Positions 1,426-5,805 of a stretch of 64,000 nt of DNA are shown piece after piece. A model generated the notes under the pieces. The model was not told where the DNA came from and searched no databases. It was given only the letters and a program-made list of their open reading frames with translations. Both the position numbers and the translations under genes were made by a program. How positions within the stretch are numbered: position 1 is the stretch's first letter; each line of letters opens with the position of its first letter. The stretch is from Escherichia phage ETEC-TG: the sequence record OR786310.1, one strand, 5' to 3'.

Positions 1426-1732
1426 CTTTAACCACCTCCAATTGCCTTTCGAGTTTGACTTTGTTTGAGAACTGATAATGACACAACTTACATTGCATGT
1501 CAACAATCTGATCGTGATTTAACCCTACAATTTTAACTTCCTTTGCACCATCCCACTCCAAATACTCAAATCCATCCAAATGATTACTCTTGTCCAACAG
1601 GAATGCTATCTGCTGCCATTCAATCTGAATGTCATTTAAATGATATGCTGCACAGAAGATATCTTCATAGTAAAAGACGATCATTGTCATTGCTTCGTCC
1701 AGCACAACTACCTCTTGTCTTGTAAATCTCAT
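1409..1732 (-). CDS. hypothetical early protein
   Basis: TAGGAGG RBS immediately upstream of start at 1732. Confidence 0.45.
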   Translation of the reverse strand: MRFTRQEVVVLDEAMTMIVFYYEDIFCAAYHLNDIQIEWQQIAFLLDKSNHLDGFEYLEWDGAKEVKIVGLNHDQIVDMQCKLCHYQFSNKVKLERQLEVVKDDSTN

Positions 1733-1907
1733 TCTAGCCTCCTAAACGCGTCTCTGACGCACTTTTTATATATAAGATGATAAATCACCTTACCTAGTAA
1801 GTAAACTTGCTCTACGAGCCTCTTATGAAGCTTGTGTTATAGGCTATACTATTGCTACCTGTTTAAGCAAGGTTTTTGCACACAGAAAATAATTTTTAAT
1901 AAAACTC

Positions 1908-1937
1908 TTGACTTTTGTGTTCGAAGTATGCTACCCT
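1908..1937 (+). promoter_or_regulatory. sigma70-like promoter candidate
   Basis: TTGACT - 18 nt - TACCCT, same architecture as other promoters in the window. Confidence 0.3.
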
Positions 1938-1984
1938 AGAAATCTATTAACGAGCGCAGCGAGTTAAGGTTTTAAGGTTGTTGA

Positions 1985-2190
1985 TGTAGTACTCTGTACT
2001 CAAGTACTGTACTCCGTACTAGATTAATAATTATTAAATATTAATAATAAATAATTATTAGATCTAACAAACAGGTACAGTGTATCAGAACTGGTACGTA
2101 CAGATCAACTTCTATCAATTAAAAATAAAATAATAAATTATTATAAATAATACTTGATCTATAGATCGGTATGAAGTACAGTACGGAACA
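1985..2190. promoter_or_regulatory. divergent control region with GTACT repeats and AT-rich/GATC palindromes (candidate ori or regulatory hub)
   Basis: 5 GTACT copies at 1989-2020, more GTAC motifs at 2073-2186, perfect palindromes ttaataattattaa and gatctatagatc; lies between leftward and rightward gene blocks. Confidence 0.4.
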
Positions 2191-2214
2191 TCTTAACAAG
2201 AATGGAGGTGTGCA

Positions 2215-2400
2215 ATGATTAGTGAGAATCCGTGCAAATGGCATCATGTGCCTATTAAAGATTGTATGTCTTGTAATCCACGTTCTATTTATAACATTGC
2301 ATCTTATGATGATGACAATGTGTTAGACGATGATGAAGGCTGGGAGGATTTAGATTGGACTGGTTATGAAACCAAAAAGGATAAAATTATTCCTGGTTGA
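2215..2400 (+). CDS. hypothetical protein, Cys-containing, acidic C-terminal half
   Basis: GGAGGTG RBS before ATG. Confidence 0.45.
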   Translation: MISENPCKWHHVPIKDCMSCNPRSIYNIASYDDDNVLDDDEGWEDLDWTGYETKKDKIIPG

Positions 2401-2437
2401 CTTAAGATATCCTTCGTGCTAAACTAGAAGTGAGGAG

Positions 2438-2689
2438 ATGCCGATCACTCCCCATTTGGGGTTCGAAGGATATATGCAAAATAGCTTTTATTTTAGGTGC
2501 CGTGCTTGTAATAGGCATTTGACAAACCACTCCAGACGTGATAAAAATGGAGTCATCAAGGAATCAGACCTCTGTTCTATTTGCACAGGTTTGGCTTTTG
2601 ATGATAGTCCCGAAAGGGTTTATCAGCATCAATGTATAACAGACGTTCTCGTGTCAAACTTGGTAGAGGACGAACAACTAACAGATTAG
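2438..2689 (+). CDS. hypothetical Cys-rich (zinc-ribbon-like) protein
   Basis: GTGAGGAG RBS; CRACNRH and CSIC cysteine pairs. Confidence 0.45.
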   Translation: MPITPHLGFEGYMQNSFYFRCRACNRHLTNHSRRDKNGVIKESDLCSICTGLAFDDSPERVYQHQCITDVLVSNLVEDEQLTD

Positions 2690-2697
2690 GAGGAACA

Positions 2698-2946
2698 ATG
2701 TCTCTATTAGAAAAACACGTGTTTGAAGATGGTAACGGCAATGCAGTTTTTCTTTTCCATCCAGAAAAATACACATCTGAAAACAATGGTACAACTTCTA
2801 TTGTAATCACTAAAGATGTTAAAGTTATTGATTTCTTGGCTCTGATGCGAGAGATGGATCTTGAAATTAATACTTTTAACGCAGAAGCTTTGGTTGTTGC
2901 TCTTCTGGAAAAGAAAGATAGTGAAGAAGTAGCAGAATATGCTTAA
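2698..2946 (+). CDS. hypothetical protein (start moved to ATG at 2698)
   Basis: AGGAGGAACA RBS directly before ATG 2698; the track start at 2632 lacks an RBS. Confidence 0.45.
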   Translation: MSLLEKHVFEDGNGNAVFLFHPEKYTSENNGTTSIVITKDVKVIDFLALMREMDLEINTFNAEALVVALLEKKDSEEVAEYA

Positions 2947-2953
2947 ATAACTA

Positions 2954-2983
2954 TTGACAAACGTATCCTTCATATGTTAGGAT
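2954..2983 (+). promoter_or_regulatory. sigma70-like extended -10 promoter
   Basis: TTGACA - 18 nt - TGtTAGGAT; recurring motif aactaTTGACAa...TATGTTA. Confidence 0.5.
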
Positions 2984-3192
2984 ACGTTCATCAAGTGTGG
3001 TAACAGGGTCGTTGACTTTTGTTAAGAGGGGCTTGCACTGCGGTAGTGTTAGAGACTACTTCTTCAGAGGTTAGCTACCAAAGAGGAAAAGGAATAGTCT
3101 CGGCTCAAGAACTTTTACGCTGAAAGTTGGGCTTGGTCTTAGAGAATGTAGCGGTTCTCTACAATCGTCAGCGTCTCTGTTACCACATTTAC

Positions 3193-3264
3193 GGCCCTGT
3201 AGCTCAATGGGAGAGCTGTCGGCTCATAACCGATAGGTAGCTGGATCGAAACCAGCCAGGGCCA
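3193..3264 (+). tRNA. tRNA-Met or Ile2 (anticodon CAT)
   Basis: Hand-folded cloverleaf: acceptor GGCCCTG/CAGGGCC, anticodon loop CT-CAT-AA, T-loop ATCGAAA, encoded CCA. Confidence 0.7.
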
Positions 3265-3269
3265 CCAAC

Positions 3270-3341
3270 GTCTTTATGGTGTAATGGATAGCACAGGAGT
3301 CTTCTAAACTCTTAGTCAAGGTTCGATTCCTTGTAAAGACA
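3270..3341 (+). tRNA. tRNA-Arg (anticodon TCT)
   Basis: Acceptor GTCTTTA/TAAAGAC, anticodon loop CT-TCT-AA, T-loop TTCGATT, CCA follows. Confidence 0.7.
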
Positions 3342-3540
3342 CCAGAACATTTTAACATGAATTAGCTCAAGTGATTTGAACCCACTACTGATCATGGTGG
3401 CAGAGAATGAGGCAAGTATGTCAGACATTATAAACAAAGGCCACGGTTATATTAGAAGACATAAATGCTCGAAGAGCACCGTTCGTGGAGAACGGGGGTT
3501 GGTGGAGTCACCATTCATGGTAAAATGTTTTAAAAAACTA

Positions 3541-3570
3541 TTGACAACTAACATTATTTTATGTTAGATT
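3541..3570 (+). promoter_or_regulatory. sigma70-like extended -10 promoter inside the tRNA cluster
   Basis: TTGACA - 18 nt - TGtTAGATT. Confidence 0.5.
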
Positions 3571-3578
3571 ATAAGTAT

Positions 3579-3666
3579 GGAAGGGCAAATCGACGTGGCG
3601 ACGAAAACGGTCTTGAAAACCGCCGAGCTTGAAAGAGCCTTGGGAGTTCGACTCTCCCTCCTTCCG
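3579..3666 (+). tRNA. tRNA-Ser (anticodon TGA), class II
   Basis: Acceptor GGAAGGG/TCCTTCC, anticodon loop CT-TGA-AA, long variable arm, T-loop TTCGACT, CCA follows. Confidence 0.65.
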
Positions 3667-3673
3667 CCAGATT

Positions 3674-3756
3674 GGTAGATTGGTGAAATGGTAGCCACGA
3701 CAGTTTGCTAAACTGTAGTCGGAAACGGCGTGTAGGTTCGAGTCCTACATCTACCG
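3674..3756 (+). tRNA. tRNA-Ser (anticodon GCT), class II
   Basis: Acceptor GGTAGAT/ATCTACC, anticodon loop TT-GCT-AA, long variable arm, T-loop TTCGAGT, CCA follows. Confidence 0.65.
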
Positions 3757-3900
3757 CCAAGTTCTTTTTAATATAGCTTACTTTAGCAGAGTAAATCTTC
3801 GGCAAGTGGCGGTAACCACTTTACCGATAACTCATAGTTAGTGGTGTGAACACTGGCTATTTTAAAAAGAATTTAAAAAGAATTTAAATATTAGTATTTA

Positions 3901-3985
3901 GGTGAGTTAATTCCGTAGGGGTAGCGGGGCAGACTGTAAATCTGTTATCATTGCGATTCGGGTGGTTCGACTCCATCACTCACCA
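3901..3985 (+). tRNA. tRNA-Tyr (anticodon GTA), class II
   Basis: Acceptor GGTGAGT/ACTCACC, anticodon loop CT-GTA-AA, long variable arm, T-loop TTCGACT, CCA follows. Confidence 0.65.
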
Positions 3986-3994
3986 CCAAATTAA

Positions 3995-4077
3995 GATGAG
4001 TTGGCTGAATGGTTTAAGCGGCGGACTGTTAATCCGTGTTCGAAAGAACGATATAGGTTCAAATCCTATACTCATCG
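3995..4077 (+). tRNA. tRNA with class II scaffold and apparent GTT (Asn) anticodon; identity uncertain
   Basis: Acceptor GATGAGT/ACTCATC, anticodon stem GCGGA/TCCGT with loop CT-GTT-AA, 15-nt variable arm with GAAA hairpin, T-loop TTCAAAT, CCA follows. Confidence 0.5.
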
Positions 4078-4170
4078 CCAGAATTATGGACTTGTAGAGT
4101 TAAGGTAAACCCCCAGTCGCCAAGAGGCTTCTGGAATTGCAGGTATCGAATCCTGCCGAGTCCCAGCTTT

Positions 4171-4242
4171 GCTCCTATAGTATAATGGCTATTACAACGG
4201 TTTTGTAATCCGTGGATCTCTGTTCGATTCAGAGTGGGAGCA
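4171..4242 (+). tRNA. tRNA-Thr (anticodon TGT)
   Basis: Acceptor GCTCCTA/TGGGAGC, anticodon loop TT-TGT-AA, T-arm CTCTG-TTCGATT-CAGAG, CCA follows. Confidence 0.65.
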
Positions 4243-4522
4243 CCAACACAACATTAAGAGCACTGTGATTGATCGTCGTATCCTGTGCACAAGGTCTGTT
4301 CGAAAGACAGTGTTCTTAGTATTGTGTTGATCACACAAAAAAAGAGTTACCTGAAACTTGACCGGAGTAGGGTTGGATGGGGCAAAAGAAGAAGCGGCTC
4401 TCCCATCGACAGCAACGAAGAATAATATTTGACTTTGGTTTTGTATTATTTTAAGTTAGCTTACCGAACGTAGGGCTAGTCACCCAACGGGATACTCGTC
4501 ACTGTCCCACTCAATAAAACTA

Positions 4523-4552
4523 TTGACAACCAATAGTAAAATGTAGTATAGT
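4523..4552 (+). promoter_or_regulatory. sigma70-like promoter upstream of tRNA-Gly
   Basis: TTGACA - 18 nt - TATAGT. Confidence 0.5.
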
Positions 4553-4563
4553 AAAGATGTAGG

Positions 4564-4634
4564 GCGTTCTTGGTGTAGCGGTAGCATTCCGTCCTTCCAA
4601 GTCGGCGGCACGAGTTCGATCCTCGTAGAACGCT
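4564..4634 (+). tRNA. tRNA-Gly (anticodon TCC)
   Basis: Acceptor GCGTTCT/AGAACGC, anticodon loop CT-TCC-AA, T-arm ACGAG-TTCGATC-CTCGT, CCA follows. Confidence 0.65.
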
Positions 4635-4735
4635 CCAAATTATTTAATAAAGGGTTGCCAGAAAACTTTCTCTTTTACTCATGGTTTTCTCCTTCTCTCA
4701 CACCTCTTCTGGTTGCCCTTCATTAAATGATTTAT

Positions 4736-4808
4736 TGGTTTGTAGTGTAGTCCGGTAGCACACGACACTTTGACTGTCGTAGGTTTGGTTCAAATCCAGA
4801 CAGACCAG
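4736..4808 (+). tRNA. tRNA-Gln (anticodon TTG)
   Basis: Acceptor TGGTTTG/CAGACCA, anticodon stem CGACA/TGTCG with loop CT-TTG-AC, T-loop TTCAAAT, CCA follows. Confidence 0.65.
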
Positions 4809-4884
4809 CCATATAACAAAGGTGAGTCACTACCTCAAGTGTGAAGTTAAAAACGAGGAGCCGCCGAACACTTTCTTTTGCGGT

Positions 4885-4958
4885 GTACCTTTAGAATGTT
4901 ATGACGGAATTTAGCTCAGTTTGGTAGAGTGTACGCTTTGGGAGCGTATTGTCGCAGG
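4885..4958 (+). tRNA. tRNA-Pro (anticodon TGG)
   Basis: Acceptor CGGAATT/AATTCCG, anticodon stem TACGC/GCGTA with loop TT-TGG-GA, T-arm GCAGG-TTCGAAT-CCTGC, CCA follows. Confidence 0.7.
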
Positions 4959-4967
4959 TTCGAATCC

Positions 4968-5038
4968 TGCAATTCCGACCAATTAAATGTTTCGTAGTTC
5001 AATGGTAGAACCCACGACTGATAATCGTGAGATACAAG
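4968..5038 (+). tRNA. tRNA-Ile (anticodon GAT)
   Basis: Acceptor TGTTTCG/CGAAACA, anticodon stem CACGA/TCGTG with loop CT-GAT-AA, T-loop TTCGATT, CCA follows. Confidence 0.7.
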
Positions 5039-5119
5039 TTCGATTCTTGTCGAAACAACCAGTTTCCCGTTAGACTTACAGGATAAGAGTTCCACAATTT
5101 ATTGTGACGCTGGTTCGAA

Positions 5120-5195
5120 TCCAGCACGGGATACATAATAGCGGGATAGAGGAGTCTGGTCGTCCTCGCCAGTTTCATATGCTGGAGATCATTGG
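5120..5195 (+). tRNA. tRNA-Met or Ile2 (anticodon CAT), mismatched 1:72 pair
   Basis: Anticodon stem CCAGT/GCTGG with loop TT-CAT-AT, T-arm ATTGG-TTCAAAT-CCAAT, acceptor 3' TCCCGCC, CCA follows; position 1 (A) does not pair with 72 (C). Confidence 0.6.
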
Positions 5196-5333
5196 TTCAA
5201 ATCCAATTCCCGCCTCCAAATATCGCTTGCCAGCGGTATCTTTGAAGACCTTGCCTGGTTCCTTCTAAGATGGAGGGGTGCGACTCCTTAACGCACAATT
5301 ATAATAAAGCATTTCAAATTAACAGTATTTATT

Positions 5334-5357
5334 AGCCTCCTTATTGGAGGCTTTTTG
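5334..5357 (+). terminator. Rho-independent terminator closing the tRNA cluster
   Basis: Hairpin AGCCTCC-ttatt-GGAGGCT followed by TTTTTG. Confidence 0.6.
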
Positions 5358-5375
5358 CTATCTATTGAATAAAAC

Positions 5376-5404
5376 TTGACTTATTATTTTTTATATGTTA
5401 AGAT
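5376..5404 (+). promoter_or_regulatory. sigma70-like extended -10 promoter
   Basis: TTGACT - 17 nt - TGtTAAGAT, followed by TAGGAGGA RBS of the 5426 gene. Confidence 0.5.
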
Positions 5405-5425
5405 AAAGTTTAGGAGGATTTTATT

Positions 5426-5722
5426 ATGCCTAAACTAAAACGTGGTCGTGGAAGACCAACAGCCGAAATGCAACAGATTTACGCAATGGATGCGGCGCAA
5501 GCAAGTGTAAAAGAATTATTTGCAGAGCATTATTTAGAAGCTATGCGGTATATTGTTGAACTTGTTAATGATAAGGATGCAGCAAAACCTCTCCGCTTCC
5601 AAGCAGCTAAAGCTATTAAAGAGCAAGTAGAAGAATGGTTAGAAGAACATTATGAAGCTATGGAAGAAGAAACCCCTGCCGTGCAGAATACAGATGACGT
5701 TCCTAAAAAGATCGTAATCTAA
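5426..5722 (+). CDS. small DNA-binding protein with AT-hook-like KRGRGRP motif (possible small terminase or regulator)
   Basis: Strong RBS and promoter; N-terminal KRGRGRP; acidic helical remainder; sits upstream of the packaging genes. Confidence 0.4.
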   Translation: MPKLKRGRGRPTAEMQQIYAMDAAQASVKELFAEHYLEAMRYIVELVNDKDAAKPLRFQAAKAIKEQVEEWLEEHYEAMEEETPAVQNTDDVPKKIVI

Positions 5723-5738
5723 TCCCTCTCCTCTCTTG

Positions 5739-5805
5739 GGGCTTTGCCCCTCCTCCTTGTTATTTTTAACACCCCTCTCCGAAAGGTTAGGGGCTTTTTT
5801 ATTTT
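5739..5805 (+). terminator. tandem hairpins with T-runs (terminator region)
   Basis: GGGGCTTTGCCCC and CCCCTCTCCGAAAGGTTAGGGG followed by CTTTTTTATTTTT. Confidence 0.5.

Follow-up and report, generated by a model that had tools for sequence, protein, structure and literature searches.

A conserved structured RNA with a tRNA-like layout is predicted in the tRNA array of Escherichia phage ETEC-TG and related phages

What occupies the long gap between two neighbouring tRNA genes in the array of Escherichia phage ETEC-TG? We addressed this question in a window of 64,000 nucleotides (sequence record OR786310.1, one strand), in which tRNA-Arg(tct) lies at 3270-3344 and tRNA-Ser(tga) at 3580-3669. 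The tRNA-Arg gene, on the + strand, is called by both ARAGORN and Rfam and ends 1-2 nt before the element described here. The tRNA-Ser gene emerged only when the ARAGORN threshold was lowered, and Rfam gave a weak tRNA-clan match there. A sequence-only reading had placed a stable, non-tRNA structured domain between these two genes, closed by a long-range helix, and the placement is confirmed. From the sequence comparisons described below, 3345-3530 is very probably a real single-copy gene for a structured RNA of about 185 nt.

The closing helix was recovered by an inverted-repeat search. The 5' arm at 3346-3362 (AACATTTTAACATGAAT) pairs with the 3' arm at 3513-3529 (ATTCATGGTAAAATGTT) at 16 of 17 positions (17 nt, 94% complementary), and the arms are 150 nt apart, in agreement with the roughly 150 enclosed nucleotides noted from the sequence alone. 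The sole mismatch sets A3355 against G3520. Among 60 dinucleotide-preserving shuffles of 2900-5400, none contained an inverted repeat of 17 nt with at most one mismatch within 300 nt, whereas the unshuffled region contains exactly one. The 186-nt segment has a folding energy of -53.8 kcal/mol (z = -3.99), and no shuffle out of 200 folded as well.

The window comes from a phAPEC8-like phage (Phapecoctavirus, Stephanstirmvirinae) and matches Escherichia phage phAPEC8 and related phages at 99.7% identity. A query with the 191-nt element found 98 places in 97 GenBank phage records, with one copy per genome and 64 of the matches at 95% identity or more. The phiWec phages, phiWec181 among them, carry the element at 82% identity, and Klebsiella phage 05F01 and Seunavirus carry it at about 70%. 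The Seunavirus carriers (Vequintavirinae) are PVP-SE1, GAP31, 4MG, SSE-121, and the Cronobacter EspYZU phages. The element always lies inside a tRNA array, and the surrounding tRNA genes differ between phages. We built a covariance model of the element from eight copies, and a search with it found no copy in the tRNA region of rV5. Motif scans of IMG/VR with two patterns gave PVP-SE1, 4MG, and phiWec-like copies and one further Seunavirus-type contig as true matches, the rest being almost all chance. A metagenome scan gave four true copies, all of which fall in the two known clades. A scan of bacterial genomes found no copy (one chance match). Because the searches for distant relatives yielded two clades only, the family is narrow and its independent lineages are few. 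As judged by these sequence searches, the element is known only in rV5-related enterobacterial phages, that is, in Phapecoctavirus and other Stephanstirmvirinae and in Seunavirus. The literature that we searched held no paper on the RNA of the element and no transcriptome of these phages.

We aligned 17 copies to the covariance model, which gave 16 distinct sequences. RNAalifold predicted 50 pairs from eight sequences, 21 of them with compensatory changes. In a six-helix model of the 16 distinct sequences, 94.8% of cells were paired, compared with 36-50% in slid controls, in which the 3' partners were shifted by 1-3 columns. Pairs changed on both sides numbered 17 in the model and 2-5 in the slid controls, and such counts overstate the independent events, since the copies represent only about four lineages with shared ancestry; the slid controls preserve this relatedness and still fail. 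None of 500 shuffles reached the observed value on four of five measures, and 23 of 500 did so on the fifth. The closing helix itself is conserved, with compensatory changes at six positions. The compensatory changes across two phage subfamilies, together with an open reading frame (ORF) that fails coding tests, support the earlier proposal of a structured RNA domain over a protein gene. Rfam searches at E up to 10, with the 4.1 kb region and with the 201-nt element alone, returned only noise.

Some parts of the fold are defined less sharply. The D stem and the hairpin H5, described below, never vary, so covariation cannot confirm either helix, and RNAalifold favours a local UCAR/UUGA hairpin using two D-stem bases over the GCUC/GAGC pairing. 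A local GUGAU/GUCAC pairing from the single-sequence fold was dropped because it is not conserved in Seunavirus, and a local GCUC-GAA-GAGC pairing was dropped because it holds only in Stephanstirmvirinae. A scan for covarying column pairs outside the helices, which would indicate tertiary contacts, was dominated by the differences that define the two clades.

We inspected the parts of the element along the + strand. The outer AU-rich closing helix, P1a, has its 5' strand (AACAUUUUA) at 3346-3354 and pairs with 3521-3529, with compensatory changes at alignment columns 2/196, 5/194, and 11/188. A3355 opposite G3520 forms a 1x1 internal loop, which the alignment shows as 2x2 in Seunavirus. The acceptor-like stem P1b follows with its 5' strand CAUGAAU at 3356-3362 paired with 3513-3519, and it covaries at columns 13/186, 17/182, and 19/180. 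The near-invariant UA-GCUC-A at 3363-3369 resembles U8-A9, the 5' strand of the D stem, and A14 of a tRNA; its one substitution is in the low-quality copy of Salmonella phage 21. Hairpin H2 at 3382-3400 has a 6-bp stem (3382-3387/3395-3400), in which four of six pairs are changed on both sides, and an invariant 7-nt loop, CUGAUCA, at 3388-3394. The junction at 3401-3410 contains the conserved GAGAAUGAG motif, the last G of which is the first base of H3. The variable arm H3 at 3411-3469 combines a covarying base (3411-3414/3466-3469, three of four pairs) with a fast-evolving interior. CGAA-GAGC-A at 3470-3478 provides the 3' strand of the D stem (3474-3477) and a base like position 26. From this part onward, the covariance model aligns to the tRNA-Pro genes of T4 and rV5.

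The 3' part of the element is more compact. H4 at 3479-3495 is a 17-nt anticodon-arm-like hairpin, CCGUUC-GUGGA-GAACGG, with a 6-bp stem that covaries in four of six pairs and the loop GUGGA at 3485-3489. The 5-nt linker GGGUU at 3496-3500 takes the place of the class-I tRNA variable loop in the alignment. H5 at 3501-3512, a mini-hairpin GGUG-GAGU-CACC in the T-arm place, abuts the 3' strand of the acceptor-like stem and is invariant except in the low-quality Salmonella phage 21 copy. The 3' strands of P1b (3513-3519) and P1a (3521-3529) complete the element at 3513-3529, with G3520 in the discriminator place and no CCA after it. In eight diverse aligned copies from two subfamilies, the loops and junctions UAGCUCA, ACUGAUCAU, GAGAAUGAG, and GGUGGAGUCACC are invariant while the stems covary. 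On this model, invariant loops beside covarying stems are as expected of an RNA whose loops make specific contacts. The self-complementary UGAUCA core of the H2 loop at 3388-3394 also includes a GATC (Dam) site; judging from the sequence, the loop could let the RNA dimerize through loop-loop contacts or could reflect a constraint at the DNA level.

The order and spacing of these parts are those of a class-I tRNA: an acceptor-like stem, UA, a D stem, an anticodon-like arm, a 5-nt variable loop, and an arm abutting the acceptor. The place of the D-loop is filled by an expansion of about 105 nt (3369-3473) comprising H2, the GAGAAUGAG junction, and H3. Three results favour this layout. When the expansion was deleted in silico, ARAGORN in its reduced-arm mitochondrial (-mt) mode, which is permissive, called 10 of 11 distinct constructs as end-to-end tRNAs with a Pro or Gln anticodon. 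The call rates in the controls were 1/440 for dinucleotide shuffles, 0/440 for mononucleotide shuffles, and 24/399 for deletions elsewhere. When the position of the deletion was varied, the best results came from deletions in the D region that made H4 the anticodon arm; this held for the window and for GAP31, and thus for both clades. The choice of H2 as the anticodon arm (loop CUGAUCA, 'GAU') was called rarely, only in the window sequence, and was rejected. The covariance model of the element aligned end to end to T4 tRNA-Thr (model 14-177) and partly to T4 tRNA-Pro (model 131-157) and rV5 tRNA-Pro (128-169). The Rfam tRNA model (RF00005) gave no tRNA match within 3345-3530 at E up to 10, and ARAGORN made no call on the element at its default setting or on the deletion constructs at thresholds of 70-80%.

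The element resembles the canonical tRNA of RF00005 in the UAGCUCA and AGAGC signatures, the two-base linker, the 17-nt anticodon-like arm, and the 5-nt variable loop. However, a canonical D-loop has about 7-11 nt against about 105 nt here, and the leader of the element pairs with its trailer. The acceptor-like stem covaries and has 7 bp in Phapecoctavirus and 5 bp with 2 mismatches in Seunavirus. The GCUC/GAGC D stem is 98% pairable and shows no variation. The anticodon-like loop reads C-[G/A]-N-N-G-A-G with G or A in the place of U33, and its C and G can pair to leave a 5-base loop. The T-arm place holds a hairpin of 4 bp and 4 nt with no 7-nt T-loop. No CCA follows 3519, whereas the adjoining tRNA-Met and tRNA-Arg encode CCA. 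Lacking CCA, U33, and the T-loop, the element cannot be charged or decode. We therefore go beyond the sequence-only reading: in the comparative model, the element is probably derived from a tRNA and tRNA-shaped, and is not itself a tRNA. In the same model, the 17-bp long-range helix consists of an acceptor-like stem and a further 9-10 bp in which leader and trailer pair. Two other kinds of tRNA-related element were considered and rejected. ARAGORN reported no tmRNA in the window. For a group I intron in a tRNA gene, there was no Rfam intron match on the element, and the tRNA remaining after removal of the insert would still be without T-loop, U33, and CCA.

The anticodon-like loop is also a substitution hotspot among close relatives. 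Positions 3485-3487 hold 7 of the 23 differences from the window among nine Phapecoctavirus variants, where about 0.4 of 23 would be expected by chance, and these differences represent few events (about four), partly shared by descent. The three bases are GUG in the window, GCU in ukendt and UP17, GUU in ABPW7, AUU in a metagenome contig, and GCG in Seunavirus. The Seunavirus copies are constant here, except for the low-quality Salmonella phage 21 copy (GCA). The 'anticodon' as read by ARAGORN is UGG, CUG, UUG, or CGG, and CAG is also listed among the phages. Given the few, partly shared events and the invariant Seunavirus loop, the hotspot may reflect diversifying selection or merely a free loop.

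The surroundings of the element suggest how its RNA would be made. A consensus scan bore out the promoter-like site that had been noticed from the sequence at 3541-3570, a sigma-70-like promoter on the + strand (TTGACA, 18 nt, TAGATT, with TG) located 12 nt past the helix and ahead of tRNA-Ser(tga). A second sigma-70-like promoter at 2954-2983 on the + strand, defined by a consensus match only, is a candidate start for a transcript with tRNA-Met, tRNA-Arg, and the element, which it probably drives. A terminator scan reported no terminator-like site on the + strand between these two promoters, including 3340-3540. In Klebsiella phage 05F01, the element at 1500-1689 is flush between tRNA-Met, which ends at 1499, and tRNA-Leu(taa), which starts at 1690. 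In Seunavirus, its 3' end is about 3 nt ahead of tRNA-Leu(taa). Both Seunavirus and 05F01 have a tRNA gene directly 3' of the element without a promoter between them. During tRNA maturation, RNase P cuts the 5' end of the next tRNA, and RNase E and exonucleases process the 3' end of the previous one. Because the element abuts tRNA genes, these nucleases would release it as a separate RNA.

Other features of the array were observed in passing. The promoter-like sites at 2947-2983, 3535-3570, and 4517-4552 have in common an extended motif, AA(A)CTATTGACAA, followed by 18 nt and the -10 hexamer, which TG precedes in two of the three sites. This sequence pattern suggests a phage-specific class of strong host-type promoters and an array split into at least three transcription units. 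ARAGORN missed tRNA-Ser(tga), tRNA-Tyr(gta) at 3905-3988, and tRNA-Leu(caa) at 4088-4164 by default and called them at the 85% threshold; Rfam tRNA-clan matches cover the Ser and Tyr genes, without the Leu gene. These three bring the array to at least 13 tRNAs, of which several are atypical. A tRNA-like stretch at 5065-5132 with a perfect GGTTCGAATCC T arm was called by ARAGORN only at the 70% threshold. Upstream, where the leftward early genes give way to the rightward small ORFs and the tRNA array, 1975-2200 is AT-rich with many short GTAC-containing repeats and long A/T palindromes (TAATAATTATTAAATATTAATAATAAATAATTATTA); this stretch may serve as a divergent control region or as an origin.

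The alternative that survives best is a passive structured spacer or processing module. The closing helix would fold the spacer on itself so that the neighbouring tRNAs fold and are cut correctly, and a double-strand-specific nuclease of the RNase III type may cut the helix itself. The same helix design, with 9-11 AU-rich pairs, one mismatch, and 5-7 pairs, recurs in other spacers of the array and suggests a common double-strand-specific processing signal. The model of the element matches 3761-3878 (20.8 bits) and 4638-4738 (13.6 bits) through that helix, and further long-range repeats lie at 2993-3190 and 3759-3885. The RNase III stems of rRNA operons and T7 early RNA are similar in their flank helix of about 17-19 bp, their small internal loop, and their recurrence in spacers. 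However, an RNase III stem has about 20 bp, whereas the 16-17 pairs of the element, with a 1x1 or 2x2 loop, make under two full helical turns, and the tRNAs on either side would suffice to set both ends of the element in 05F01. A spacer would need only the helix, whereas the interior loops and junctions of the element are invariant while its stems covary, and the element keeps its identity while the surrounding tRNA genes change. We consider this explanation unlikely.

Nearly all long spacers of the array fold back on themselves. The segment 3761-3878, between tRNA-Ser(gct) and tRNA-Tyr, matches the model of the element with E about 1e-5 and shows 11 AU-rich pairs, a U-U mismatch, and 5 pairs, together with a AGCAGAGUA motif and a hairpin (AGUGGUGUGAACACU) abutting the 3' strand. 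As modelled, it may be a smaller paralogue without the expansion. The closing helix at 4638-4738 has 11 bp, one mismatch, and 5 bp. The repeat at 2993-3190 has 35-nt arms, 77% complementary, directly after the promoter at 2954.

A decaying tRNA pseudogene with an insertion, drifting and functionless, would explain why the anticodon loop, T arm, and 3' end of a tRNA-like skeleton are defective, and the Salmonella phage 21 copy (an UNVERIFIED record) does look degraded. Drift is hard to reconcile with 17 base pairs kept by double changes, with long invariant blocks at about 70% identity between subfamilies, and with one copy retained per genome in about 98 phages, and we regard a pseudogene as very unlikely. 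Still less probable are two further readings, a miniature mobile element bounded by terminal inverted repeats and an intrinsic terminator for the upstream tRNA transcript. The 17-nt terminal inverted repeats, the short U run after the helix, and the new promoter 12 nt on fit these two readings, but the internal helices covary as an RNA. Against mobility, the 98 places are spread over 97 records, with one copy in the window and none in bacterial genomes. Against a terminator, none is reported on the + strand at 3340-3540, the AU-rich helix base encloses 150 nt, unlike an intrinsic terminator, and a tRNA gene lies directly downstream without a promoter in Seunavirus and 05F01.

The 63-aa protein of ORF 3376-3567 can be set aside almost entirely: the ORF is present, as the sequence-only reading had listed it, and several records annotate hypothetical CDSs over the region, but it has a TTG start with no Shine-Dalgarno-like sequence ahead of it, differences between the window and homologues fall evenly over its codon positions (about 20/20/17), 1-nt indels occur inside it at 3383, 3398, 3426, and 3432, stops cut it to 37 aa in UP17 and a near-identical metagenome contig, the frames differ in other phages, and Pfam and PHROG searches at E up to 1 matched nothing. 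The 'hypothetical protein' CDSs in several GenBank genomes differ in frame and length, and other genomes leave the element unannotated. Going by the sequence, these CDSs are probably annotation artefacts.

On balance, we read the element as a conserved non-coding RNA gene with a tRNA-derived skeleton, transcribed with the array, whose product would be a non-chargeable tRNA mimic. It would be transcribed with the tRNA array from host-type promoters and released by the nucleases that mature the adjoining tRNAs. The RNA would be stable because its ends are locked in the 17-bp helix. A stable mimic that cannot be charged might occupy a tRNA-binding factor, which could be an enzyme of the phage or a host enzyme that targets tRNAs, and the anticodon-like loop would be its variable contact with that factor. 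Such a mimic or decoy function is suggested by analogy, and we offer it tentatively, as a possibility of rather low probability. More doubtful is the specific form in which the RNA is a counter-defence decoy and its anticodon-like loop diversifies against a host factor that reads or cuts tRNA anticodon loops. In that case, the expansion of about 105 nt would be a second binding surface, and the palindromic UGAUCA loop might let the RNA dimerize.

We compared the element with known small RNAs. T4 rnaC and rnaD (species 1 and 2) are also small non-tRNA RNAs inside a phage tRNA cluster that abut a tRNA gene, and the T4 record annotates them as small stable RNAs at the end of the cluster. We know of no function for these RNAs. 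A tRNA-type T arm (CCGGGUUCGAAUCCCGG) near the 3' end of rnaC makes it partly tRNA-like as well. However, rnaC keeps the T arm, whereas the element has lost the T-loop and retained the portion with the D stem and anticodon arm; its D-loop is expanded, and its acceptor-like stem is extended by 9-10 bp. When 70.5-73 kb of T4 was searched with the covariance model of the element and filters off, neither rnaC nor rnaD was matched.

YrlA RNA (RF02553) combines a long helix of its 5' and 3' ends with a tRNA-mimicking module, as the element does. YrlA has its ends at the anticodon side and keeps the T and D arms. In contrast, the ends of the element lie at the acceptor side, and neither T-loop nor D-loop is left. 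E. coli K-12 hosts are not known to have a Ro60/Rsr partner. The Rfam YrlA model did not match the element, and its sole match in 1700-5800 was on tRNA-Pro/Ile at 4950-5011, with 21 bits against a threshold of 69. YrlA-like RNAs are reported near tRNAs in phages (PMC4201824).

Two of the Seunavirus arrays carry a remnant of a tRNA-Leu gene next to the element. The SSE-121 segment 487-1058 contains an HNH endonuclease gene (annotated at 516-1010) right after the element. Ahead of this gene is what remains of the usual tRNA-Leu, a 5' fragment (GCGTCCTTGGTCCAACTTGGTAGAGG), and after it comes a different tRNA-Leu(taa) allele at 973-1058. By analogy with segB in the T4 tRNA cluster, the arrangement looks like a homing-endonuclease cassette that replaced the tRNA gene. 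The PVP-SE1 segment 1689-2257 has the same leftover tRNA-Leu fragment after the element and about 480 unannotated nt before tRNA-Leu.

By sequence, the element appears to be a new family among the tRNA-like small RNAs of phage tRNA clusters, and it is absent from Rfam. The literature that we searched does not describe its modelled architecture, in which the D-loop is expanded, the T-loop is lost, and the acceptor end is extended and closed. Phage tRNA arrays are now viewed as tools against tRNA-targeting host immunity. To our knowledge, no function has been assigned to the non-tRNA RNAs in such arrays since the discovery of T4 species 1 and 2. The element provides a second example, unrelated to those of T4, with a clear comparative structure. 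It would also allow the annotation of about 98 genomes to be corrected. The phages phAPEC8, PVP-SE1, and their relatives grow easily and have a place in therapy and biocontrol work. With a defined fold, a mutable loop, and natural loop variants, the element would make the role of such RNAs in phage tRNA arrays directly testable.
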